This document shows positions 9,656-26,323 of a stretch of 64,000 bases of DNA, piece by piece. Position 1 is the stretch's first letter. The number at the start of each line of letters is the position of its first letter. The stretch spans positions 8,598 to 72,597 of the forward strand of contig CAWGAL010000002.1 of assembly GCA_963820665.1 (NCBI GenBank), given 5' to 3'. A model generated the notes under the pieces. The model saw nothing but the letters and a program-made list of their open reading frames with translations. It was not told the DNA's origin and did not search any database. The position numbers and the translations under genes are program-made. Source of the stretch: an uncultured Solirubrobacterales bacterium (lineage in GTDB: Bacteria > Actinomycetota > Thermoleophilia > Solirubrobacterales > 70-9).

Positions 9656-10540
9656 CTAGGGACAGCTGCGGAGCGTGTCGCGCCCCGCCCCGCCCTTGCA
9701 GCTATCGCTGTTACGACCTCCGTTGAGCAGGTCGTTGCCGCGCTGTCCACGGAGCACATCCCGCCCTGCCTTACCTCGGATCAGGTCACCTCCGCCGCCG
9801 CCGAGCAACCTGTCGCGACCCGGACCGCCGATCATCGTGTCGGCGCCGGTTCCGCCGACCACCCGGTCCACACCGATGTCAGCGCAGATCAGGTCGTTGC
9901 CGCCGCCGGCGAAGATTCGATCGTTGCCGGCAAACCCGCGAATGACGTCGGCACCCGCTGTGCCGACCAGCACGTCAGCACCCGCAGTGCCAGAGATCGT
10001 CGGGGTAGCGCAGCTGGCCCCCTTTGGCTTCTTCGGCTTCTTCCCGGTCGCCTTCTTGTTGATCACCGTGGTTTCGGTGTCCTGGTTGTTCGCTGCATTC
10101 GTGTCGTCGACACTGGCAAGTGAAGCGGTGTTCGAAACCGTTCCCGTCCTCTTCGCCTTGACGAGAATCGTGACGGTGGCGGTCGTGCCGGCGTTGACCT
10201 GGCCGAGGTTGCAGGTGACGTCGGCGCCTGTCCGCTGACAGCTGCCGGCCGTCGCCGATGACGAGACGTAGTCGACGTCCGCGGGCAGCGTGTCTGTGAC
10301 GACCACCGCCGAGGCGTCACTGGCTCCCTGGTTGCGCGTCGCGATCGTGTAGCTGAAGTTGTCACCCTGAACAGCCGGGTCAGCGCTATCGCTCTTGGTC
10401 AGGATGAGATCGGTCGGACCGACCGCTGCCGTCGCGCCGCCCGGGCCGACCATCATCAGGACAAGGGCGGCGAAGACCGTTCCTGCCAGGCCGACCATCC
10501 GAAGGCCGCCCAGGCGCCGCCTGCAAACGTCCGTGTTCAT
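9656..10540 (-). CDS. secreted DUF11-domain protein with C-terminal RTX (hemolysin-type Ca-binding) repeats
   Basis: 294-aa ORF with a signal/TM segment (LRMVGLAGTVFAALVLMMV). The DUF11 pattern is DLILTKSDSADPAVQGDNFSYTIATRNQGASDASAVVVTDTLPADVDYVS...NTASLASVDDTNAANNQDTETT. A Lys-rich linker KKATGKKPKKPKG follows, then GGxGxD nonapeptides (GTAGADVLVGTAGADVIRGFAGNDRIFAGGGNDL...). Strong SD (AAGGAGGA) before the ATG. Confidence 0.8.
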   Translation of the reverse strand: MNTDVCRRRLGGLRMVGLAGTVFAALVLMMVGPGGATAAVGPTDLILTKSDSADPAVQGDNFSYTIATRNQGASDASAVVVTDTLPADVDYVSSSATAGSCQRTGADVTCNLGQVNAGTTATVTILVKAKRTGTVSNTASLASVDDTNAANNQDTETTVINKKATGKKPKKPKGASCATPTISGTAGADVLVGTAGADVIRGFAGNDRIFAGGGNDLICADIGVDRVVGGTGADTMIGGPGRDRLLGGGGGDLIRGKAGRDVLRGQRGNDLLNGGRNSDSCKGGAGRDTLRSCP

Positions 10541-10751
10541 CTCTTCCTCCTTGTTCCTGGGGGCCCCGAGGGGCCCCCGTTCCCTGGCACGAAGCCATGT
10601 ACCTCCTAACAGCGCCGGGACGTCGCGATTGGTTACGGACCGGGCGAAGACCGGCTCATGTCCAGGCTCCAGATAACCGATGAGTAACCCACGAGCCCTC
10701 CCCGGCGCTACCCCGGTGAGTGCTCATAGCTCCACGACCAACTGCAAGAAA

Positions 10752-11060
10752 ATGCGTATCCCAACTCAAGCCGGCTTCATTCTCGTCGTTGCGCTGGTCG
10801 CGGTCGCAGTTGCCTGGGTCGCGTCCTCTGCGCCCGCTCAGGATCCGGCTAGCCCCGCGGAGAGCCAGTACACGGCTCCGATCCCTGCGGAGGCCGGCGA
10901 GTCAGGCTCGGACGAAGAGCCGACAGGCATGAGGAGCAACATCGGCTCGTTTCCGTTCACCGGCCTGGACCTTCTGATCCTGGGCGTAGTCACCTCGTTG
11001 GTGGCGCTGACGGGATTCCTGCTCCGCAGGCTGTCCGCGCCCCGCAGACCGGTCCGCTGA
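10752..11060 (+). CDS. small secreted acidic protein with LPXTG-like (FPFTG) sortase sorting signal; paralog of 23741-24072
   Basis: From ATG 10752 the translation reads MRIPTQAGFILVVALVAVAVAWVASSAPA / QDPASPAESQYTAPIPAEAGESGSDEEPTGMRSNIGS / FPFTG / LDLLILGVVTSLVALTGFLL / RRLSAPRRPVR. That is a signal peptide, a low-complexity acidic segment, the motif, a TM helix and a basic tail. The ORF-track start 10680 is also possible. Confidence 0.6.
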   Translation: MRIPTQAGFILVVALVAVAVAWVASSAPAQDPASPAESQYTAPIPAEAGESGSDEEPTGMRSNIGSFPFTGLDLLILGVVTSLVALTGFLLRRLSAPRRPVR

Positions 11061-11093: not shown

Positions 11094-11528
11094 CTACGTG
11101 AGCGCGTTGCGGAGGTCGAAGGCGCGTATCCCCTCGGGGCCGTCGTCCGCGCAGTCGAAGAAGCGGCGATTCACGCACTCGAACGCCGCGCCCTCGCCCT
11201 CGTAGGCCGTCTCGACCGAGAACTGGCACTGGGGCAACGGGTCGGCGTTCATCTTGATGCCGCCGTAGCCGCCGGCCATCAATCCCGTCTTCGCGTTTCG
11301 CTTCGCTTCACGCTCGGCGAAAAGGAACATGTCGAGGTCGATCTCGCCCCTGAAGACCTTCTGCATGCAGCCCATGAAGCGGCTGCCGGTGGTGATGTCC
11401 TCGTACGAGTAGAGAAAGCGGCAGCCGACGGCGATGCAGCCCGCGGGCTCGATCAGCTTGTCGCAGAACCCACGGCACTGCCGGCATTCGCCTGCCGCGG
11501 TTCGCTGCTGTCTTTGCTCTGCGGGCAC
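11094..11528 (-). CDS. hypothetical Cys-rich protein (9 Cys in 144 aa)
   Basis: 144-aa ORF directly downstream of dnaE on the same strand. N-terminal cluster C-x2-C-x3-C-x8-C-x4-C (ECRQCRGFCDKLIEPAGCIAVGC) plus four further Cys. I recognise no family. Confidence 0.5.
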   Translation of the reverse strand: MPAEQRQQRTAAGECRQCRGFCDKLIEPAGCIAVGCRFLYSYEDITTGSRFMGCMQKVFRGEIDLDMFLFAEREAKRNAKTGLMAGGYGGIKMNADPLPQCQFSVETAYEGEGAAFECVNRRFFDCADDGPEGIRAFDLRNALT

Positions 11529-11624: not shown

Positions 11625-14600
11625 CTAGGCGGCCTGGGCCCCGGCGCCGACCAGGGCGCTGAGCTCGGCGCGCAGCGCGGCTGAGGGACGGACGCGGTAG
11701 CCGTCGCCGAACCGCAGCCGGCGCTTGCCCTCGCGGGTGTTCATCTCGAGCTCGACCTCGGACTCGCCGGGGAAGCTCTCGAACACCGTCTTCAACTCGT
11801 CGATCAGCGAGGGGCCGAAGGCGGCGGCGTCGATGCGGAGCACGATCGGCCCGTCGGCGCGCGCCTTGCGGGCGCGGGCGACCTCGTCCTCTGTCGGCTC
11901 GAAGCGCTCGAGCTCCTGCGCGATCAGCTTCGTCTGCCCCCGCTCCTGGTGGTCGAGGCGGCCCCGCACGGTGACGACGGCGTCAACCGCGAGGTAGTCG
12001 ATGGAGGCCTCGTAGGTCTTGCCGAGGACGAGCATCTCGACCTGGCCCTCGATGTCGTCGAGCGTCGCGAAGGCCATCGTCGAGCCGCTCTTCGTCTTGT
12101 GGCGCTTGAACTCGGTGACGATGCCGCCGACCTTGACGAAGGAGCCATCCGCCTTGGAGCCGAGGTCTGAGATCGGGCAATCGACCGCCGCGCGAAGCGC
12201 GTCGCGCACGTCCGCGATCGGGTGCGAGGAGAGGAAGGTGCCGAGCGTCTCCTTCTCGAGGCTGAGCAGCTCGTTCTTCTCGTACTCGGCGAGACCGACC
12301 GGAGGATGCTGTGAGCGCGCCGAGGACGCCTCTGAGGCGCTCCCGGCCCCGAGGTCGAAGATCGAGCCCTGCCCGAGGCGCGAGTCCTCCTGCGCCTTCT
12401 GGCCCGCCGCGGCGGCCATCGGGAGCGCGTCCACCATCCCCATGCGGGTAGCGCCGGTGGAGTCGAGCGCTCCGCACTTGATCAGGCACTCCACCGCGCG
12501 CTTGTTGACGGTGCGGTTGTCGACCCGCTCACAGAAGTCGTAGATCGACTCGAAGTCGCCGCCCTCGGTGCGCGCAGCGATGATCGCCTGGACCGCGGCA
12601 TGACCGACGTTCTTGACCGCGTCGAGGCCGAAGCGGATGCTCTTGCCCGAGACGACGAACCCGTGGTCGGAGGTATTGACGTCGGGCGGCAGGACGTCGA
12701 TCCCCATCTCGTCGCAGCGGTTTACGAAGAACGGGACCTTGTCCTTGGTCGACATGACCGATGAGATCAGCGCCGCCATGTACTCGGCGGGGTAGTTGGC
12801 GCGAAGCCAGGCCGTCCGGTAGGCGATCAGCGCGTAACAGGCGGCGTGGCTGCGGTTGAAGGAGTAGTCGGCGGCCGCCTCCATCAGCGACCACAGGTCC
12901 TTCGCCACGTTCGGCTTGGTATCCGAGGCCTGGAGGCCCGCCAGAAACTCATCCCGGATCGTCGCCATCAGGTCGCGCTTCTTCTTGCCGATCGCCTTGC
13001 GCAGGTCGTCGGCTCGCGCGGGGCTGAAGCCGGCCATCTGCTTGGCGATCTCCATCAATTGCTCCTGGTAGATCACGCAGCCGTAGGTCGACTCGGTGAT
13101 CGAGCGGAGGCGGGGGTCCGGGTAGGTGACCGAGGCCGGGCTCTTCTTCCCGCGTGCGTACTGCGGGATGTAGGCCATCGCGCCGGGCCGGTACAGCGAC
13201 ACCAGCGCGACCAGGTCCTGGAACTCGGTCGGCTTCACGCTTCGCAGCGCGTCGCGCATGCCGTCGGACTCGAACTGGAAGACGCCGATCGACTCGCCGC
13301 GAGCGAGCATCTCGTAGGTGGCGAGGTCGTCGAGCGGAAGGTCCTTGATGTTGAGCTCGGCCTCGCTCGAGCGCTCGATGATGTCGACCGCGTCCTCGAT
13401 CACGTCGAGGTTTCGCAGGCCGAGGAAGTCCATCTTCAGCAGCCCGATCTCCTCGATCGGGCCCATCGAGTACTGCGTGACCATCTTGTAGGCCCGCTCC
13501 GGCTTTCCGCCCGCGACGTTCCCGTTTCCGTTTCCGTTTCCGCTCGCAGCGGCGCCGCGGTCCTCCGCCAGCTGGAGGGGGACGATCTCCTGCAGCGGGC
13601 GATCCGAGATCACCACCGCCGCGGCGTGGATGGAGTTGTTGCGGACGACCCCTTCGAGACCCTTGGCGACCTCGATGATCTTCTTCGCGTCGGCGTCGGT
13701 GTCGTAGGTGCGCCGCAGCTCCTGGCCGGAGCGCAGGCACTCGTCGAAGCTGGGGGAGCGGCCCATGATCGGCTCGGGGATCTGCTTCGCGAGCCGGTCG
13801 CCGATCACATAGTCGTAGCCGAGGACGCGGGCGGCGTCGCGGGTCGCCTGGCGAGGGGCCATTTTGCCGAAGGTGATGATCTGCGCGACGCACTCGCGCC
13901 CATACTTCTCCTGGACATAGCGGATGACGCGCTCGCGGCCGCGGACCGAGAAGTCGATGTCGATGTCCGGCATCGACTTGCGGCCCGGGTTCAGGAAGCG
14001 CTCGAACAGCAGCCCGTTGGCTATCGGGTCGATGTCGGTGATGTCGAGGACGTAGGAGACGATCGAGCCGGCCGCCGAGCCGCGGCCCGGGCCGACCGCG
14101 ACGCCGTTCTGCTTCGCGTAGCGAACGAAGTCCCAGACGATCAGGAAGTAGGACTCGAACCCCATGTCCTTGATCACCCCGAGCTCGAAGTCGAGCCTCT
14201 CGGCGGCTTCGGCCGGCACCGGGTCGCCGTAGCGGGCGCGCATCCCCTCGTCGCAGAGCCGGCGCAGCATCTCGCCGGGCTCGGAGTCGTCCCCGGTCTC
14301 GTACTGCGGCAGCAGCAGGCCGCCGAGCTCCATCTCGACCTCGCAGCGCTCTGCGATCTCGAGCGTGTTCGGGACGGCCTCGGGCCAGTCGGCGAAATCG
14401 GCCTCCATCTCGTCCGCGCTCTTCAGGAAGAACTCGTTCGTGTCGAAGCTCAGCTTCGGCTCGGCGACCGTCGACTTCGTCTGCACGCAGAGCAGGGCGG
14501 CGTGGTTCTCGTAGTCATCGCGGTGCAGGTAGTGGACGTCCGCCGTCGCGACCAGGGGCCTGCCGACCTCGCGGGCGACCTTGACGATTCCCTCGTTCGC

Positions 14601-15203
14601 CTTGTCCTGCTCGGGGATCCCGTTGCGCTGCAGCTCGAAGTAGACCTGGTCGGGGCCGAACACCTGGAGCAGCTCGTCGGCGTGGGCGCGCGCGTCGGCC
14701 GGCCGGTCCTCGACGATGCGGCGGCAGAAGCGCGACTGCAGGCAGCCGGTGAGCGCGATCACGCCCTCGGAGTGGCGCGAGAGCAATTCCATGTCGAGGT
14801 TCGGCTTCCCGCGCGAGAAGCCCTCGAGGAAGCCGGCCGAGCTCAGCATCACGAGGTTGCGAAAGCCGGCGTCGTTGTGCGCCATCAGCGTCAGGTGGTT
14901 GCGCTCGTAGCGCGCCTGCGACTTGACGGCCTCGCGGTCGGAGACGAGGTAGGCCTCGACCCCGATGATCGGCTTGATCCCGACGTCGCGGCATGCCTTG
15001 TAGTGCTCGACCGCGCCGTTCATGACGCCGTGATCGGTGAGCCCGAGGGCCGGCATGTCGAGCTCGGCTGCGCGCTCGGCCAGGGACTTCCGCCCGATCA
15101 GCTCGCCCTTCTTGTTCTTCTTGCGGGGGCTGAGCTTGCACGCGCCGTCGAGCAGCGAGTACTCGCTGTGGACGTGCAGATGTGCAACCCCGGGTGCGCT
15201 CAC
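11625..15203 (-). CDS. dnaE: DNA polymerase III subunit alpha
   Basis: 1192-aa uninterrupted ORF. N-terminal PHP domain (HLHVHSEYSLLDGA), polymerase core (DIDIDF, LLKMDFLGLRNL, YRPGAM, FNRSHAACYA) and a C-terminal OB fold. Confidence 0.95.
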   Translation of the reverse strand: MSAPGVAHLHVHSEYSLLDGACKLSPRKKNKKGELIGRKSLAERAAELDMPALGLTDHGVMNGAVEHYKACRDVGIKPIIGVEAYLVSDREAVKSQARYERNHLTLMAHNDAGFRNLVMLSSAGFLEGFSRGKPNLDMELLSRHSEGVIALTGCLQSRFCRRIVEDRPADARAHADELLQVFGPDQVYFELQRNGIPEQDKANEGIVKVAREVGRPLVATADVHYLHRDDYENHAALLCVQTKSTVAEPKLSFDTNEFFLKSADEMEADFADWPEAVPNTLEIAERCEVEMELGGLLLPQYETGDDSEPGEMLRRLCDEGMRARYGDPVPAEAAERLDFELGVIKDMGFESYFLIVWDFVRYAKQNGVAVGPGRGSAAGSIVSYVLDITDIDPIANGLLFERFLNPGRKSMPDIDIDFSVRGRERVIRYVQEKYGRECVAQIITFGKMAPRQATRDAARVLGYDYVIGDRLAKQIPEPIMGRSPSFDECLRSGQELRRTYDTDADAKKIIEVAKGLEGVVRNNSIHAAAVVISDRPLQEIVPLQLAEDRGAAASGNGNGNGNVAGGKPERAYKMVTQYSMGPIEEIGLLKMDFLGLRNLDVIEDAVDIIERSSEAELNIKDLPLDDLATYEMLARGESIGVFQFESDGMRDALRSVKPTEFQDLVALVSLYRPGAMAYIPQYARGKKSPASVTYPDPRLRSITESTYGCVIYQEQLMEIAKQMAGFSPARADDLRKAIGKKKRDLMATIRDEFLAGLQASDTKPNVAKDLWSLMEAAADYSFNRSHAACYALIAYRTAWLRANYPAEYMAALISSVMSTKDKVPFFVNRCDEMGIDVLPPDVNTSDHGFVVSGKSIRFGLDAVKNVGHAAVQAIIAARTEGGDFESIYDFCERVDNRTVNKRAVECLIKCGALDSTGATRMGMVDALPMAAAAGQKAQEDSRLGQGSIFDLGAGSASEASSARSQHPPVGLAEYEKNELLSLEKETLGTFLSSHPIADVRDALRAAVDCPISDLGSKADGSFVKVGGIVTEFKRHKTKSGSTMAFATLDDIEGQVEMLVLGKTYEASIDYLAVDAVVTVRGRLDHQERGQTKLIAQELERFEPTEDEVARARKARADGPIVLRIDAAAFGPSLIDELKTVFESFPGESEVELEMNTREGKRRLRFGDGYRVRPSAALRAELSALVGAGAQAA
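13518..13541 (-). repeat. hexanucleotide microsatellite (GGAAAC-type, 4 units) inside dnaE encoding (GN)4
   Basis: The plus strand reads gttccc gtttcc gtttcc gtttcc. On the coding strand this gives ..AAASGNGNGNGNVAGG.. within DnaE. Confidence 0.7.
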
Positions 15204-16364: not shown

Positions 16365-16463
16365 GGGTGTCCCCTTCGGTCGAAGTTGTCTCGGGAAGCT
16401 ACCCACAGCGGGCGCCCGGCTAACTTCGGGCGCCCTTACGCGAGCTACGCGAGCAAGGGTCAC

Positions 16464-17453
16464 TCAGGCGCAGGACCAGGCGCCCGGGCCGTCCTCGCGC
16501 CAGATGATCGCCGCGATGCGGTCCTGCTCGGCCTTCGAGGCCTCGTGCGGGAGGCCCTGGCCCCCGTAGGCGCGCCAGGTGGACGGGATGATCTGGTAAG
16601 CCCCGCCGGCACCGCTCGAGGGGTTCAGCGCGCGGTAGTTGCCGCCTGACTCGCACATGACGATGTAGGTGGGGATGGAGTACGGCCCGCCGAGGAACGC
16701 CTCGCCGCCGCCCTCGGAGATCTCGGCCGCCGCGGCCTTTCTGACCTCGAGCTCCCATCCGGAGATCTGTTGCCGGAGCTCCGCGAGCGCGCCTTCGGCG
16801 TCGGCGCGCACGGCGGCGATCTCCTCCGCCCGCTGGGCGGAGGCGGCGCGCTCGGCCGCGATCTGCCGCTTCGCGTCGTCGAGCGTGCGGCTCTGCTCGT
16901 CGATCCCCTCCTTGAGGCCGGAGATCTCCTCGTACCGGCCATCGACCTCCTCGCGGAGCGCCGCCACCCGCTCGGCGATCTGCTGGTCGGCGTCTGTCAG
17001 CGCCTCCACGTACTCGGCGCGGCTCTGGATCTCCGCGTAGTCGGAGGCCTCGAGAATGACCGCGAGCAGGTCCGGGTCGGGCGACTTGTAGATCGCGACG
17101 AGGCGGTCGGCGAGCACTCCGACCGAGCGGTCGTAGCGTGCTCGCACGGCCTCGAGCTCCCGCTCGGCCGCGACCAGGTCGTCGCTCAGCTCGCTCGAGC
17201 GGGCGGTGGCATCGCGGAGCTGGGACTCGAGCTCCGCCTCGCGCGCCGCCGCCGCGGCGGCTTCGGCCTCGAGCTCGGAGATCTCGGCGGACTGGGATGA
17301 GATCCGCTGCGAGATCAGCGACGCCTCGGACTCGGCGGAGTCGATCTTCGCCTCGAGTCCGGGATCGGCGGCGCCCGCGACGGCGATCCCGCCCACGGCA
17401 ACGAGGGCGATCGCGCTCGCGATCACGGCTCCGATCTTGAAGTTTGGTCGCAC
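16464..17453 (-). CDS. secreted coiled-coil protein with C-terminal Rpf-like (resuscitation-promoting-factor type) transglycosylase domain
   Basis: 329-aa ORF with a signal/TM segment (IGAVIASAIALVAVGGIAVAGA). About 230 aa of Ala/Glu/Arg/Leu-rich heptad-like sequence follow. The C-terminus MCESGGNYRALNPSSGAGGAYQIIPSTWRAYGGQGLPHEASKAEQDRIAAII..GPGAWSC resembles Rpf (ECESGGNW...PHQASKAEQI...GAWP.C). Confidence 0.75.
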   Translation of the reverse strand: MRPNFKIGAVIASAIALVAVGGIAVAGAADPGLEAKIDSAESEASLISQRISSQSAEISELEAEAAAAAAREAELESQLRDATARSSELSDDLVAAERELEAVRARYDRSVGVLADRLVAIYKSPDPDLLAVILEASDYAEIQSRAEYVEALTDADQQIAERVAALREEVDGRYEEISGLKEGIDEQSRTLDDAKRQIAAERAASAQRAEEIAAVRADAEGALAELRQQISGWELEVRKAAAAEISEGGGEAFLGGPYSIPTYIVMCESGGNYRALNPSSGAGGAYQIIPSTWRAYGGQGLPHEASKAEQDRIAAIIWREDGPGAWSCA

Positions 17454-19179: not shown

Positions 19180-20466
19180 TCATCTCTCTCTTCCCCCTCG
19201 ACTGTACGCCGAACCCGGTGCGCGAGTCGGCTCTGAAGGGTGAACAGCTCGATGAAGCCCGGGCTCGCGTGCTGGGAGAACTCGCCTCCGGACTCGCCGA
19301 ACGACGCCAGCGACTGGTCGTAGAGGGCGAACGGCGAGCTGCGGATCACGGGCGTGACCGAGCCCTTGTAGAGCTTCACGCGTCACCTCGCCCGTCACGA
19401 CCTCGTTGACCGAGTCCATGTAGGCGTCGATGTCGCTGCGCAGCGGCTCGAGCCAGAGGCCCGCGTAGGCGAGGTAGGCCCAGTGGTCCTCGAGCGCGCC
19501 CTTGAAGTTGTTCTGGTGGATCGTGCTGACGAGCTTCTCGAGGTCGCGGTGCGCCGCCATCAGGATGGCCGCGGCCGGGACCTCGTAGAGGTCGCGCACC
19601 TTGAGGCCGACGATCCGGTCCTCGATGTGGTCGACGATGCCGCAGCCGTGGCGGGCGCCGATCTCGGTGGCGCGGTCGATCAGCTCGACCAGCTCCATCG
19701 ACACACCGTCGAGGGCGATTGGCCGCCCTCGCTCGAACTCGACGCGTCACGAGCTGCGGCTCGTCTGGCGCGAGCCTCGGGGCGGGTGACCAGCTGGAAG
19801 ACGTCATCGGGCGGCGGTGCCGAGCAGGTCCTCGATCTCCTTGCCCTCCGACGAGCGCCCCCAGAGGTTGTCGTCGATCGAGTACGGCGAGACCTCGTTG
19901 CCGCCCTTCAGCGGGATGCCGTTGTCCCGCGCGTACTGGATCTCCTCGTCGCGGCCCATCCGCCAGTCGCGCACCGGCGCGAGCACCTTGAGCTCCGGGT
20001 CGAGCGTGGCGATCGTGGCCTCGAGGCGCACCTGGTCGTTGCCCTTCCCGGTGCACCCGTGGGCGATCGTGTCGCAGCCGTGCTCGCGCGCCACGTCGAC
20101 CGCCTTGGTCGCGATCAGCGGCCGCGCGAGCGCGGTGAACAGCGGGTAGCCGCCCGCCGTAGAGCGCGTTGGCCTTGATCGCCGGCAGCACGTAGTCCTC
20201 GGCGAACTCCTCGCGGGCGTCGACGACCACGGTCTCGACCGCGCCGAGCGCCTTGGCCTTGTCGGTGACGGCGGTGTAGTCCTCGCCCGGCTGGCCCAGG
20301 TTGACGGTCAGGGTCACGATCTCGGCGCCGTAGTGCTCGGCGATCCACTTCACCATCACGCTCGTGTCGAGCCCGCCGGAGTAGAGCAGCAGGACGCGCC
20401 CGATCTCGTCCGGGTCGACCTCGAAGGAGGCGATGCGGGGGCTGTCGGGGGCCGGGTCGGTCACGT
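19180..20466 (-). pseudogene. argG: argininosuccinate synthase, frame-disrupted in this sequence (at least 3 frame changes)
   Basis: Pieces lie in different frames: 19376-20485 (RVLLLYSGGLDTSVMVKWI...IKANALYGG), 19804-20094 ([22 protein letters not shown]...[11 protein letters not shown]), 19180-19704 (ELIDRATEIGARHGCGIVDHIEDRIVGLKVRDLYEVPAA) and 18993-19379 (KLYKGSVTPVIRSSPFALYD). Together they form a complete ArgG. Confidence 0.85.
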
Positions 20467-20556
20467 TGGCGGAGCAGTTTCGCACGGGCGGCGACCAGCG
20501 AGCTTCGCGGCCCGGGCCTTGAGCGCGCGCTGGGGCGCCCCTGCCAGAATGCGCCC

Positions 20557-21247
20557 ATGCGCCGCTTCGCCCGCATCCTCTCCACCGCCCTGATCACCGC
20601 CGGCATGGTGGTCTTCGCCGATGTCGCGGTGACGCTGCTGTGGCAGGAGCCCGTCTCGGCCGCGTACGGAAACCTCCAGCAGGGCAAGGCCGAGGACGAC
20701 CTGGCGGACCTCGAGACCGACTTCGCGGCCGAGACCGAGGCGCTCGGCGAGATCGCCGCGGAGAAGCGAACCAGGGTGCTCGCAAAGCTGTTCGAGCGCG
20801 AGATCTCGCAGGGCGACGCGATCGGCCGCATCCGGATCCCGAGCATCGGCCTCGACACCGTGCTGATGAACGGCACCGACACGGCCACCCTTCAGAAGGG
20901 GCCCGGCCGCTTCCCGCAAACACCCCTCCCCGGGCTTGGACGGCACCACGGGGATCGCCGGCCACCGCACCACGTACGCCGCCCCGTTTCGGAAGATCGA
21001 CCAGATCGACGACGGTGAGGAGATCCAGGTCAAGCTCCCCTACGGGACCTTCAACTACGAGGTCGAAGGCCACGAGATCGTCGACCCGAGCGACGTCGAG
21101 GTCGTGTTCCCCGTCGGCTACGAGAGGGTCGTCCTGACCGCGTGCCACCCGCTGCACAGCGCGGCGCAGCGCTACGTCGTCTCTGCCCGCCTGACCGACA
21201 TCGAGACTTTCGGCGGCGCCGGCGAGGACCGCTGGCCCGCTCCCTGA
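20557..21247 (+). pseudogene. sortase (class D/E-like transpeptidase), one frame change near 20930
   Basis: The N-terminal TM anchor (ILSTALITAGMVVFADVAV) and IGRIRIPSIGLDTVLMNGT are in ORF 20557-21018. GIAGHRTTYAAPF (His), VVLTACHP (catalytic Cys, TLxTC-like) and RYVVSARL (Arg) are in ORF 20936-21247. Confidence 0.8.
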
Positions 21248-21253
21248 CGCCCG

Positions 21254-22171
21254 CTAGCGCGGCGTGAAGCTGTCGAGCGTCGCCTCGGCCTCGCGCACCT
21301 GACGGCGCGAGGCGTTCCCCTCCACCCGCTTAAGGAGCAAGTAGGACACTCCCCCTCGCGAGAAGAAAGTCGCGATCTCCTCGCCGCCGTCGTAGCTGAT
21401 TCGGGCGCGAGCCACCGCCCTGCCCTTGAACTTCGCCGGGTAGAGGGGGCCCACCACCGCACCGTCGTGGCGCTGTTCGAGGAAGAGCTCCGAGGTATCG
21501 GCGAACTCGATCGGCGAGAGATCGCTCGGGCCGAAGTAGACGGTCACCGCGGCGCTTTGGTCGGGCGCCTCGATCTCCGCCTTCTCGTCGTCTGAGTCGA
21601 CGGCCTCCCAGCCCGCCGGAACCCCGATCGAGAAGACGTCGGCGAACGTGCGGCGCTCGAGCTCGACGCCGTTCACCGTCAGCTTCTTCGGCGGAGCCTG
21701 CGGCTCCGGCTTGACGGGGGCGGGGTCTGGTTCGACGGCCGCGCTCGGAGCCGGATCCGGGTCGGGAGCCGGCTCGTCGTCATCGGATCCGAGCACGGCG
21801 GCGCCCACCACCAAGGCCGCGGCGCAGATTCCCAGCACCGCGAGCGGGACGCCGATGCGACGGCGCGCGGAGGGCTTGGATGGACGCTCGGCGGTGCGGC
21901 GGGCCTGCTCGAAGTCGGCGGCCTTGACAGCCGCGTACGGCTTCCCCGCCGTGGCGGGCGGAATCACGCTGCCCGCCGCGTCCATGTCGCCCGCCTCCGC
22001 CATCCGGTAGCCGGTGCTCTTTCCGCAGCCCTCGCAGCTGATGCGGAGCCTGCCGCTACCGGCCTGGTCGGAGCGTTCGACGTTGAAACCCGCGTCGCAG
22101 GCCTCGTGCTCAGCGAGGAACTGCGCGATGCTCGGCGCGCCCCCGCCCTTGAATCTCTCCCCAGGCGCCAT
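21254..22171 (-). CDS. membrane protein with cytoplasmic Cys/His zinc-ribbon-like N-terminus and extracytoplasmic domain
   Basis: 305-aa ORF containing FLAEHEACDAG...RISCEGCGKS (H-x2-C ... C-x2-C), one TM helix (IGVPLAVLGICAAALVVGAAVLG), a Pro/Asp-rich linker and a C-terminal domain of about 150 aa. Last gene of the operon containing the priming transferase. Confidence 0.55.
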   Translation of the reverse strand: MAPGERFKGGGAPSIAQFLAEHEACDAGFNVERSDQAGSGRLRISCEGCGKSTGYRMAEAGDMDAAGSVIPPATAGKPYAAVKAADFEQARRTAERPSKPSARRRIGVPLAVLGICAAALVVGAAVLGSDDDEPAPDPDPAPSAAVEPDPAPVKPEPQAPPKKLTVNGVELERRTFADVFSIGVPAGWEAVDSDDEKAEIEAPDQSAAVTVYFGPSDLSPIEFADTSELFLEQRHDGAVVGPLYPAKFKGRAVARARISYDGGEEIATFFSRGGVSYLLLKRVEGNASRRQVREAEATLDSFTPR

Positions 22172-23715
22172 CAGCGAGGCGAAAGCTATCCGCTAGGTGA
22201 CTTCCACGCTCGCGGGGACCTGCTCCTCGGCCGCGGGCTCGGACGGCGACGATGAAGCGCTCGTCGGGCCGGTTGATCGGCTCGGGGACGACGACGGTGC
22301 TGAGCGTCTCGAGCATGATCAGCAGGTCGAACAGCACCGAGCGGCGCTTCAGGTAGAAGAGGTCGTGGCAGAGCTTCCAGGCGCTGCCGATGTGGCTGCC
22401 GGAGTAGCCGCAGCGCACCTGAGCCCAGCCCGTGATGCCGGGCTTGACCAGATGCCGGCGGTCGTAGTAGGAGAAGCGGCTCTCCAGGTCGATCACCAGG
22501 CTCGGCTGCTCAGGCCGGGGGCCCACGAGGCTCATCTGCCCCTTCAAGACCAGCCAGAGCTGCGGCAGCTCGTCGATGTGCGTGCGGCGCAGGAAGCGCC
22601 CGACCAGGGTGATTCGGTCGTCCTCGTTGCCGGTCCACATCGGGCCGTCGTCGTGAACGCGCATCGTCCGCAGCTTCACGAGGTCGATCGCCTGCCCGCC
22701 CTCGCCCATCCGCGGCTGGCGGTGCAGCACCGGCCCGCGGTCGTTCAGCTTGATCGCAAGCGCCGCCACGATCACGAGGGGGGCCGCGATGATCGCCGCG
22801 ATCGTGCCGAGCGTGAGGTCCAGGATTCGCTTGGAGATCGGCCAGCTCGCGCGGTAGCGCGGATGCAGCAGGTACTGGAACCAGGCCGAGGTCGTGGTGC
22901 CGAGCGGGACGTGGCCGAAGAGCTCCTCGTAGAGCTGCCCGGCTTCGATCATCGATACGGGCAGGTCCAGGCAGGCGTCGGCGACCAGCTCGAAGACTTC
23001 GAGCCTCGAAACGCCGGCGGACTGGAACTGCCCCTCGGATTGCTCCGTCGAGGCCTGGCTCAGAGGGCCGAGCACGAGGAGCTCGACTCCGTTGTCGGAT
23101 GATCGTCCCGCGCAACTCGGTGAGCGAGCCGAGACAGCGGATGCCCGCCACCTCGTCCTCGACGCAGGCGTGCTCGGGATCGATGCAGCCGACGACGCGG
23201 TAGCCGTGCACGCCGACCGCCTCGAGCTCGGCCTCGAGGCCGCGCGCGAACTCGTGCGAGCCGATCACCGCGACCTGCACCTCCCGCCCGCGCCGGAAGT
23301 TGTAGGTGACCATGGCGCCCAGTGCCGTCACGACCCAGGCGCCGATCACCGGCGCGACCATCTCGGAGGCCGTGATGTCGCTGACCGAGTAGCCGTCCCA
23401 GGCGCTGATGGCGATCGCCAACCCAGCGCCGAGGGGCGCGGCCGCTGCGTAGAGGGTCGCCGATGCGAACGGGATCAGGTGCAGCGGGTACTGGGGCCTG
23501 CGCAGCACCATCGAGACGCCGAACGCCGACCCGAAGACCAGCAGGGCCTGCCACTCGGACTCGAGGTGCGCGTAGACGATCGCCGCAGCCGCGAGGGCCG
23601 GAGCGATCCGCAGCGTCACCAGCTCGACCAGGCGCTGAGCGGTCAGACCGCTCAGGTGCGGGAACGAGCGGCGCGGCGGAGTCTCACGAGCGAGATGCCT
23701 CTGCCCGTCGCTCAT
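22110..23715 (-). pseudogene. polyprenyl-phosphate glycosyl-1-phosphate (priming) sugar transferase, WbaP/EpsB-like; one frame change near 23080
   Basis: The N-terminal polytopic part and the Rossmann-like VAVIGSHEFARGLEAEL are in ORF 22510-23715. The catalytic bacterial sugar transferase domain is in ORF 22110-23075 ([58 protein letters not shown]). Confidence 0.8.
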
Positions 23716-23740
23716 CTCAATGTCCCAGTGGGGAGCCCTG

Positions 23741-24072
23741 CTAGGAGCTGGGATCCCGCGGCATGGACAGCCTGCGCAGCGCGAACCCGGTGCCCGTGAG
23801 CATCAGTGCAACCGCGGCGATGATCAGCAGGTCCATTCCGGTGAACGGAAGGGAGCCGATCGACGCGCTGAGGCCGCTTTCCTCGCTGCCGGTTGCCGGC
23901 CGCCGGCACCGGAGGCGCCGCCACCGGCGGTGCCCTCTTCGATGTTCGGCGGGTTGTACTGCGCCGACGACGGATCGTCGGTCTGAGCGACTGCCATGGG
24001 TGCAGCTGCGAAAGCCCCCACAAGGGCAACCGCCACGATCATGCCAAAACGGCTGAGCTTTGTCTTACGCAT
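23741..24072 (-). pseudogene. small secreted acidic protein with LPFTG sortase sorting signal (needs one frame change); paralog of 10752-11060
   Basis: ATG 24072 with a GAAGGA SD. Frame 1 reads MRKTKLSRFGMIVAVALVGAFAAAPMAVA/QTDDPSSAQYNPPNIEEGTAGGGASGAGG. After a frame change at approx 23895-23925 it continues PATGSEESGLSASIGS-LPFTG-MDLLIIAAVALMLTGTGFAL-RRLSMPRDPSS-stop (complement of 23741-23743). The ORF track shows only the 82-aa frame-1 product. The gene lies 25 nt upstream of the priming transferase start. Confidence 0.55.
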
Positions 24073-24342
24073 TTGGTTTCAATCCTTCTCTAAGTTCGGG
24101 GGCTATTCGTTCGGTACTTCATGTGGTTCGGATCACACTGGTACGGAACATCGTCAGGCAAGTGCTCAGCCTTGAGCGCAGCATACTACCTAATTTTGGA
24201 GAGCTGGGCCCCTCGCCCAACTTCCGCACTCAAACATCACCCTTGCCCGTCGCGGGCATGATAGTCGGTCGTAATCCCGGAAAAACAACCGCCTGTTTCG
24301 GGTAATCATCGCGATTCCTCACGCCTGGAGATACGGATGCAC

Positions 24343-26323
24343 TCACTTCTGGGCGGCGATTTCGTCCGCCAGCGTCGGCGATCTCCTCCCCGCGCGGGTT
24401 CAGTTCGCGGGCTCGCTGCAAGGCGCGGTTCGCCCCCGCGGATCGCTCGCCGCGAGCACCTGGGCGCGGATGTAGTACAGCGTCCATTCCTCGGGCTGGC
24501 GGTCCTCGGCCTCGTCGAGCGCGGCCAGGGCACGTGCGCGATCCCCGTTGCGGTCGGCGATCACCGCCTCGGCCGCGAGGGCGCGCTCGCTGAACGGGTT
24601 CAGGTCGGCTGCGCGGTCGAGGTCCTCGTAGGCGCCCTCGGGGTCGGCGCCCCCGGTCCGGATTCCCTCGTTCGTGTAGCGCTCGCTGAAGAAGAACGGG
24701 AGCAGGCTCAGCGCCGCGACGACCGCGGCGCACGGCGAACCCGATTCGCAGACCGCGGCTCGGCCCCGGTCCCGGGTTGCGCAACGCCGGCGCGGCCGCG
24801 GCGCCGAGCACGAACGCCATCGGCAGCGTGATCACGGGATAGGACCAGAACCACTCCACCGAGGCGTGCACGAGCCAGTAGCCGGCGACCGCCAGCGCCC
24901 CGGCGACCAGCGCAGCCGCCTGCGGCCCTCGCCTGCGCGATCGAAGCGCCGCCCAGGTCCCCGCCACGACGAAGACGCCGAACAAGAGCAGCCCCGGCAC
25001 CCCGAGCTCGGAGGCCATCAGCATGATCACGCTGTGCGGGTCCTCGGGTTGCAGCGTGGACTCCTTGTCGCGCAGGTAGCTGAACCGCCATCCGCCGGCC
25101 CCGACGCCGCCAGCCGGGTTCGCGGCGAGGTCGTCGATGGCGACGCGCCAGAAGTCGCCGCGGTCGGAGGACAGGTCGAGGCCGAAGCGGCTGCCCTTCG
25201 AGCTCAGGTCGGGGGTGCCCGCGGTGAGCTCGTCCGTCTGGTTGTCGATGAACTCGCGCGGTCCCCCGCCCGAGGCGACCACGGCGATCGTGCCGGCCAC
25301 CACGACCACCGCGGAAGACGCCGGCGAGCACGCGGCCCAGCAGCCGCCCGCGCCGCTCGGAGAGCTCGATCAGCGGGTCCCGCCAGGCTGCGAACGCTCC
25401 GATCACGGCCGAGACGGCGCTGGTGATGGCGATCGCCGCGGCGGCCGAGCGCAGCGGGTCGAGCGATGCCGCGGTGTTGCCGCCCTCGGTCTGGAAGACG
25501 TCGAGCAGCCACGGCAGCGCGGGCAGCACCGGCAGCACCGCCAGAGCGAGCCAGCCGAGGATGCGAAGCCGCTCGGGATGGGCTGCGACGAGCACGGCGA
25601 CGCCGGCCGCGAGGGCGAAGACCGAGGTCCGGCTCTGCGAGAGCACCGCCAGCTCGATCGCGAGCGTCGCCGAGCCCACCAGGAGCCCGCGAAGCCGCCA
25701 GTCCAGCCCGTCGCGCGCCGCCGCCAGGACGACCATCGGGAACATCGCCATCAGGAAGAAGCCGGCCACGGCGTTGCGGTAGCCGACGGGATAGCGAAGC
25801 GTGGCGTCGATCTCGAGCAGCTCGGTGGAGTTGTCGCTGACGGCGAGCGCGATCAGGGTGGCGACGCCGACGAGCGCCCCGGCCACCGCCAGCGGCGCGA
25901 GCGCGAGCAGCACCCTTGGCCCGAGCAGCGAGCAGAGCCAGAGGCCGAGCACGAACGCGACCGCGTAGGCGAGCACCCGCTGGGCGTCCTCGATCGCGAT
26001 GTCGGGAGCGGGTGACCAGGTCGCCGAGATGAGGGTGAGCAGCGCGATTCCCCCAGCAGCGCGACGAGGCAGACGAGCGCTGGGCCCCGGAGGCGAGCCG
26101 GCAACGGAGCGAACAGCAGCAGGGCGACGAGCAGGCCGAGCAGCCCGATCGTCCCGGGCAGGAGCGTGACCCCGAAGTAGGCACCCCGCTCCCAGGCGAA
26201 CCATGCGATCAGGGCCGCGATCAGGCCCAGGGGGAGCAGCGCAGCGGCCAACGAAGGGGGCCCCGCTGCCGCCGGAGTCGCGGGCGTTCGCGAGGTCTCC
26301 ACGCCGGGGCCGGGGTCAACCAT
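24343..26323 (-). pseudogene. O-antigen ligase/Wzy-like polytopic membrane protein fused to C-terminal TPR-like repeats; several frame changes
   Basis: Start ATG 26323 (MVDPGPGVETS.., the tail of ORF 25853-27106). TM-rich pieces lie in ORFs 24708-26204 and 25204-26184. The Wzy_C-like region is GGWRFSYLRDKESTLQPEDPHSVIMLMASELGVPGLLLFG (ORF 24230-25309). The TPR-like part reads EGAYEDLDRAADLNPFSERALAAEAVIADRNGDRARALAALDEAEDRQPEEW..RALQRARELNPRGEEIADALADEIAAQK-stop. The 3' end at 24343 depends on accepting the last frame change. Confidence 0.65.

Follow-up and report, generated by a model that had tools for sequence, protein, structure and literature searches.

Is a reading frame of 102 codons, carrying what looks like a complete cell wall sorting signal, a genuine gene, and if it is, what could so short a protein do at the surface of an uncultured Solirubrobacterales bacterium? 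The frame in question (hereafter copy 1) was analysed within a window, by which we mean the whole stretch of 64,000 nucleotides corresponding to contig C2:8598-72597 of a 2.14 Mb assembly (five contigs, 70% G+C, 63.7% estimated completeness). On the forward strand the ORF 10680..11060 is open throughout, and an ATG inside it at 10752 gives a mini sorting-signal protein of 102 aa followed by a stop codon (10752..11060), the frame of which is kept in orthologues and the product of which matches a family profile (see below). ORF positions and Pfam matches agree that copy 1 stands outside the polysaccharide locus, between a DUF11 and RTX protein encoded on the reverse strand (9656-10540; PF01345 84 bits, PF00353 92 bits) and, also on the reverse strand, a Cys-rich 144-aa ORF (11094-11528) beyond which comes dnaE (11625-15203).

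The copy 1 frame is real and uninterrupted, and a predicted signal peptide, FPFTG, a transmembrane helix and an RRLSAPRRPVR tail are all present as reported in the preliminary description. The predicted Sec signal peptide, M1-A29 (10752..10838, forward strand, as are all parts of copy 1), consists of a basic n-region (R2) and an h-region of 18-19 residues (A7-S25, mean Kyte-Doolittle 2.57), with cleavage predicted after A27-P28-A29; these regions and the conserved A-x-A before Q30 fit a Sec signal peptide, the exact start codon being uncertain. A27 and A29 are at least 90% conserved in the family and Q30 comes next in most members. The mature protein would then open with a conserved head, D31-PASPAESQ-Y40 (10842..10871), which contains the family-invariant Tyr40, and continue with an acidic low-complexity spacer, T41-S66 (10872..10949), which ends in a conserved SNIGS and varies in length and composition among members. 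The acidic region, previously put at 45 aa, measures 37 aa (Q30-S66), with seven D/E against one R. It is followed by the sortase motif F67-P-F-T-G71 (10950..10964), which is LPFTG in relatives (LPVTG in one orthologue) and which retains P, T and G at 31 residues from the C-terminus, within the ~35 residues allowed for an LPXTG signal. A membrane helix and basic tail, L72-L91 and R92-R102, complete the protein (10965..11057): the motif is followed by L-D and by a hydrophobic stretch, L74-L91 (Kyte-Doolittle 2.52), and the tail holds five Arg, R92 being invariant and R93 near-invariant, so that the helix and positive tail of an LPXTG signal are both there. A chaplin-like hydrophobic surface protein was considered and rejected for copy 1, its passenger being acidic and hydrophilic.

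Small frames of this kind call for caution. High-GC genomes contain many spurious ORFs, dozens of which appear in the list for the window, and copy 1 might be one more frame left open by chance, at 70% G+C, between two convergent genes. A sequence scan around copy 1 recognised no promoter, Shine-Dalgarno sequence or terminator, folding of its 3' spacer gave nothing above shuffles, and NCBI called merely a truncated 75-aa version in a relative. That copy 1 is not a gene is nevertheless extremely improbable, because its conservation spans genus to order level (family profile match E 2e-29), because indels within the ORF keep the frame while those outside break it, and because only three ORFs in the genome carry the tripartite signal. 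Among 5.8 billion proteins searched, seven relatives of about this length came up, and a six-frame search gave matches in 19 of 41 genomes (40 relatives and the window's own). True orthologues of copy 1, at 63-77% identity, come from one genome of the same genus (G001), three long metagenome contigs and a number of short-read contigs (Logan, from unrelated runs), and all share the context of DUF11-RTX, Cys-rich and dnaE genes. In a DNA alignment of six of these orthologues, all independent assemblies, indels inside the ORF always come in multiples of three, while indels of one and two bases separate the orthologues upstream of 10752. Pairwise dN/dS among the orthologues is 0.36-0.65, below 1 in every pair; copy 1 is therefore under purifying but relaxed selection.

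The same alignment bears on the start codon, for which 10680 and 10752 had been proposed as candidates. At the position of ATG 10752, two other orthologues also have ATG, G001 has TTG and two have AAG. The ATG codons, together with the contrast between upstream and internal indels, thus favour 10752 as the most likely start over 10680 or a GTG at 10716, but the two AAG codons mean that the start is not settled clade-wide. In G001, translation likely begins at the TTG, judging from the alignment. The public annotation of this orthologue (P0005; L048 10001-10228) starts at an internal Met, giving 75 aa with the signal peptide cut off.

Copy 1 belongs to an unnamed Solirubrobacterales family for which no Pfam or NCBIfam model exists. 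Members share a common plan of 80-135 aa (observed lengths 83-135 aa): a signal peptide ending in A-x-A-Q, a head with an invariant Tyr, a low-complexity spacer, and a C-terminus composed of G-S-LPFTG-[LM]-D, a transmembrane segment and an LRRLS-type tail. Copy 1 has every one of these features except Leu at P4. In the alignment of 34 members from which the profile was built, Tyr40, Pro68, Thr70, Gly71, Asp73 and Arg92 are invariant, and Ala27, Ala29, Gly65, Leu67, Phe69, Gly88 and Arg93 are at least 90% conserved. The pattern G[SP]LPFTG[LM]D served to collect some of the rows, in which the motif is therefore conserved by construction; this does not apply to Tyr40, Arg92 or the A-x-A site. Members found by the profile only, in other families of the order, show the same plan, with the Tyr 8-15 residues past the predicted cleavage site (QY, SY, GY or TY).

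Two variations of the head deserve mention. In several lineages (L076-L079, L081, L084, L085, L088, L095 and L098, and G018, G016b, G026a and G031, the last four being loci L106, L125, L108 and L110), the head (DPTAAQY or a shorter x-Y) lies between two cysteines (C-x4-12-C), which suggests a disulfide-closed loop presenting the invariant Tyr. Conversely, the Tyr-containing head is lost in two dispersed secondary copies, G006:C5:179518-179844 (L124) and L105 (P0006/P0007), both of which retain a perfect SLPFTG[WM]DL sorting signal. On sequence grounds, this loss fits a head function that would be tied to the polysaccharide locus.

How specific is the sorting signal? A strict pattern (xPx[TSA]G followed by a hydrophobic stretch and a basic tail at the C-terminus), applied to all 22,822 stop-to-stop ORFs of the genome, picked 13 ORFs, of which only copy 1 and its homologue at 23741-24072 are convincing. 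With a broader pattern, which also let in 17 obvious false positives, one more convincing case appeared: a cupredoxin protein with LPSTG, encoded on another contig, that the strict pattern had missed because its basic tail is long. The signal is thus more than a motif occurring at random frequency in this genome. The third candidate substrate, of ~271 aa (G000 contig C5:391337-392224, forward strand, outside the window), has a signal peptide, a Pro-rich stretch, a copper domain of the cupredoxin/plastocyanin type (PF00127 35 bits), and a Gly/Ser/Ala linker leading to LPSTG, a helix and a long basic tail, and would represent a copper protein anchored to the wall. Searched with copy 1, TIGR01167, PF00746 and the NCBIfam and Pfam collections gave no match at E<=1, nor did PADLOC-style or other family models, and a genome-wide TIGR01167 search did not return the copy 1 ORF. 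The TIGR01167 and PF00746 models were built mainly on Firmicutes signals. Weak matches of the mini-protein to XrtQ, DUF6541 and SCO2097 were dismissed as transmembrane or low-complexity noise.

From a Phe held to be conserved at motif position 1 or 3, the preliminary description had suggested a dedicated sortase specificity. Phe at position 3 is indeed conserved, but Phe67 (P4) is private to copy 1 of this genome: the orthologues have Leu (LPFTG, once LPVTG), and the codon, TTT against CTT or CTG, differs by a single C-to-T change, so that Phe67 may be either a recent substitution or a base-call error. Phe at P4 is unusual and could lower or abolish sortase cleavage in this genome. A sortase dedicated to [LF]PFTG was rejected: large proteins in related genomes (frames of 261 and 474 aa) likewise terminate with LPFTG, and further large proteins have LPATG or LPYTG at this place. 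The common sorting motif of the order Solirubrobacterales is therefore LPFTG, with its Phe at P2, and, given the LPSTG cupredoxin protein as well, the sortase of this genome is a general enzyme rather than one dedicated to the mini-proteins.

That sortase is the only one found in the assembly (20557..21247, forward strand; PF04203 73 bits). One extra base near 20940 shifts the frame of its gene in this assembly, and the catalytic His (GHRTTY), Cys (LTACHP) and Arg (QRYVVSARL) are all present; G001 has an intact orthologue of 229 aa. The enzyme scores below every class cut-off of the NCBIfam profiles: the G001 orthologue reaches 116.4 bits on the class E model NF033747 (cut-off 160), its best, and then 103.8 and 95.4 bits on class D models. 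Its best solved relative in a PDB sequence search is 4d70, which we take to be a class D enzyme, the PDB entries that follow being presumably of class E; the PDB titles name no class. Class E sortases prefer LAXTG, with Ala at P3, and are marked by a conserved Tyr in the beta3/beta4 loop (PMC5148588); the candidate substrates here (LPFTG, FPFTG and LPSTG) all have Pro at P3. The enzyme thus resembles SrtE1/SrtE2 of Actinobacteria (PMC5148588) in its best class score, in its N-terminal membrane anchor and in being a single, housekeeping-type sortase of a soil actinobacterium, but differs from them in a score below 160 that is nearly tied with class D and in substrates with Pro rather than Ala at P3. 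Across genomes, the family and the sortase go together: all 20 of the 41 genomes with a strong family match (E<1e-10) have a sortase, which 9 of the 21 others lack (Fisher p = 0.0008, with the window's own genome included and uncorrected for phylogeny). The two genes are also often close, with no more than 8 kb between sortase and mini gene in 24 of 49 related loci and 3-5 kb in 8 of 40 relatives.

The window contains a second member of the family, copy 2, with an LPFTG motif (23741..24072, reverse strand), in which the frame changes near 23895-23901. Copy 1 had been put forward as the paralogue that validates the reconstruction of this interrupted frame. It is homologous and uninterrupted, but the best validation comes from the intact 108-aa orthologue of copy 2 in G001 (L040 2704-3030, 95% nucleotide identity). 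Relative to G001, uncompensated frame-breaking indels affect argG (five single-base insertions in a gene 96.6% identical overall), the sortase (one), copy 2 (net two bases in its Gly-rich spacer), the priming transferase (two) and the Wzy_C-TPR gene (several); there are none in dnaE, the ferritin gene, the Cys-rich gene or copy 1. The indels cluster in window 19180-26250, and the 11-16.4 kb stretch (dnaE, ferritin) is free of them. The breaks in copy 2, the sortase and argG look like assembly errors rather than decay, because the essential argG holds five insertions in near-identical sequence; as argG lies in the same 7-kb stretch, we rejected genuine pseudogenes as the main explanation of the breaks in copy 2 and the sortase. 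There is probably a local assembly or consensus problem at 19180-26250, which would explain part of the low completeness estimate. G001 is itself frameshifted in a gene for a coiled-coil Rpf-type transglycosylase (L040 9453-10463, orthologous to window 16446-17453) that is intact, with PF06737, in the sibling assemblies L049 and L050, and these long-read genomes therefore all carry sporadic indel errors.

The setting of copy 2 is that of the family at large. Forty-nine related loci were fetched from GTDB species representatives, and a mini gene is recognisable in 46 of them. In 37 loci its stop codon lies 16-300 nt upstream of a WbaP-like glycosylphosphotransferase gene on the same strand, such a transferase is encoded within 8 kb in 45, and a homologue of a membrane protein with Wzy_C and a C-terminal TPR (PF04932) is present in 32. 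A second mini gene lies between the transferase and the sortase in five loci (L057, L059, L062, L063 and L069, ~7.7-10.2 kb in each), in the order mini, transferase, mini2, with mini2 ending 16-840 nt from a convergent sortase gene. The same layout is found at 20.5-26.2 kb of the window, with the sortase, a zinc-ribbon/TM protein, the transferase, copy 2 and the Wzy_C-TPR protein. The transferase, a WbaP-like polyprenyl glycosylphosphotransferase (22193..23715, reverse strand; TIGR03025 292 bits and PF02397 188 bits on the G001 orthologue), begins 26 nt after copy 2 in the intact relative. Upstream of copy 2, the Wzy_C (O-antigen-ligase-type) membrane protein with its C-terminal TPR (24343..26246, reverse strand) is split over several frames; its G001 orthologue gives 49.6 bits on PF04932 plus a TPR match. 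After the priming transferase comes a gene for a 305-aa protein with a zinc ribbon, a single TM and an extracytoplasmic domain (window 21254-22171, reverse strand; L040 4725-5642). It has tblastn matches (29-45% identity) in about 20 of the 49 related loci and no match in Pfam or NCBIfam.

Copy 1, unlike copy 2, has no WbaP-like transferase adjoining it. It lies 9.5 kb from the sortase, with argG, a LysR regulator, the Rpf-type hydrolase, ferritin and dnaE in between, and 12.7 kb from copy 2. Its identity with intact copies from polysaccharide loci of the same genus is 45-51%, and in the gene tree the copy-1 clade (100/100 support, stem 0.66) falls inside a polytomy of polysaccharide-linked copies from the same taxonomic family. 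Another genome of the genus, G003, has the linked copy only, plus two large proteins with the signal. Tree nesting and the gene content of G003 therefore point to copy 1 as a recent duplicate confined to part of this genus. The family is thus not dispersed, as the position of copy 1 had first suggested; 37 of the 49 loci adjoin a priming glycosyltransferase, and by comparison of the loci the founding copy would be the first gene of a priming-glycosyltransferase operon in a surface-polysaccharide locus.

Copy 1 is most likely a sortase substrate of a known kind from an undescribed family. By analogy with the established sortase pathway (PMC5148588), the pre-protein would be exported by Sec and its signal peptide removed after Ala29; the C-terminal helix and basic tail would hold the protein in the membrane, the single sortase (window 20557-21247) would cut between Thr70 and Gly71, and the ~41-residue acidic peptide Gln30-Thr70 would become covalently bound to peptidoglycan. 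We regard this sequence of events as highly likely. Points that count against it are the missing matches to curated LPXTG models, the unusual Phe at P4, the start codon that two orthologues lack, the absence of recognisable expression signals around copy 1 and the frameshifted sortase gene. Besides a predicted signal peptide, copy 1 shares with other LPXTG proteins a C-terminal motif in which P3 is P, P1 is T and P1' is G, the hydrophobic helix and basic tail that close the protein, and a nearby sortase gene. Unlike them, the mini-protein has a passenger of ~40 residues with no folded domain, P4 is Phe in copy 1, the flanks of the motif are unusually conserved in the family (SNIGS-LPFTG-[LM]D) and curated profiles give no score. 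It might be objected that copy 1 is a decaying or neutral duplicate without a function of its own, in which Phe67 has already put an end to sorting, leaving a product that is degraded or stays in the membrane as a short bitopic protein. Several observations could be read this way: Phe67 is private to this genome, dN/dS is fairly high, the copy-1 clade sits on a long stem, the entire conserved head is deleted in one lineage (L105) and the copy is present in only part of one genus. However, none of the six orthologues has lost the open frame, their indels being in-frame only, the sorting-signal half is the best-conserved part of the protein and no pair of orthologues reaches a dN/dS of 1, so that we find this reading unlikely.

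What might the anchored peptide do? An idea that extends the sortase-substrate reading, and does not exclude it, is that the family, copy 1 included, provides a wall-anchored glycan carrier for the surface polysaccharide. According to this idea, the polysaccharide would be primed by the adjacent WbaP-like transferase and moved from its lipid carrier onto the peptide head by the Wzy_C+TPR protein, acting as an O-oligosaccharyltransferase; the acceptor would be the invariant Tyr or a nearby Ser/Thr of the head, and the polymer would be tied to the wall once the sortase had joined the glycopeptide to peptidoglycan. We consider this possible, though tentatively so. The invariant Tyr of the mature head may be a glycan attachment site: it is kept in every transferase-linked copy across order-level divergence and is lost in the two dispersed copies described above. 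The linkage to the priming transferase in 37 of 49 loci, and the presence of the Wzy_C+TPR gene in 32, point the same way, and so does the architecture of that protein, Wzy_C with a C-terminal TPR, which is shared with the known O-oligosaccharyltransferases WsfB and PglL. Yet the Wzy_C+TPR protein has no PglL-specific Pfam match and no relative in the PDB by sequence (no match at E<=1), and could be an ordinary polymerase; gene adjacency might reflect co-regulation only; and copy 1 itself is unlinked to the polysaccharide locus. It is more doubtful still that the mini-proteins are dedicated sortase-anchored polysaccharide acceptors with copy 1 as a second, separately regulated one.

Precedents exist for each half of such a system. 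S-layer glycans of Paenibacillus alvei are O-linked to Tyr and primed by a WbaP homologue, WsfP (PMC2943079). The S-layer loci of P. alvei and Geobacillus (WsfP/WsaP with WsfB/WsaB; PMC2943079) resemble the present ones in pairing a WbaP-type transferase with a Wzy_C (+TPR) protein beside a presumed acceptor gene. Their acceptor is however large and held by SLH domains, where here it would be a 40-residue peptide held by a sortase, and we found no sequence relationship between the S-layer and mini-protein acceptors. As for the anchoring step, a sortase-anchored actinobacterial glycoprotein is known in GspA of Actinomyces oris, to which the glycan is added before wall anchoring by the housekeeping sortase (PMC6381275). 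The GspA/LcpA/SrtA system (PMC6381275) is similar in that the gene of a wall-anchored actinobacterial protein is linked to genes handling glycopolymers. GspA is nevertheless larger (the monomer runs at ~25 kDa) and is glycosylated by an adjacent LCP enzyme, while here glycosylation of the mini-protein is a hypothesis, the linked genes are those for a priming phosphoglycosyl transferase and the Wzy_C+TPR protein, and the sole LCP gene is unlinked, which speaks against the carrier idea. The PEP-CTERM/exosortase system (PMC1569441) offers a further parallel: there too, short low-complexity secreted proteins end in a tripartite C-terminal sorting signal, and the genes for substrates and sorting enzyme are grouped with exopolysaccharide loci in which a priming sugar transferase is encoded. 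On TIGR03013, a model of the PEP-CTERM system, the present transferase reaches 244 bits, which is under the cut-off. The motif (LPFTG against PEP), the enzyme (a cysteine transpeptidase against a polytopic exosortase) and the envelope all differ, and the resemblance is an analogy, not homology.

Taken alone, copy 1 is of modest importance: it confirms the existence of an unannotated family of very small sortase substrates and supplies an uninterrupted example where the main copy suffers from assembly errors. The wider value lies in the family, whose members are usually missed or truncated by gene callers, are linked with unusual regularity to the enzyme that begins polysaccharide synthesis and share one invariant tyrosine. 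The recognition of LPFTG as the general sortase motif of the order should also be useful for annotating surface proteins in these abundant, almost uncultured soil bacteria. If the tyrosine does carry the polymer, the family would represent a new route by which surface polysaccharide is attached to the Gram-positive wall, a protein-mediated fixing of capsule or exopolysaccharide to the actinobacterial wall that would be the Gram-positive counterpart of the PEP-CTERM/exosortase link.
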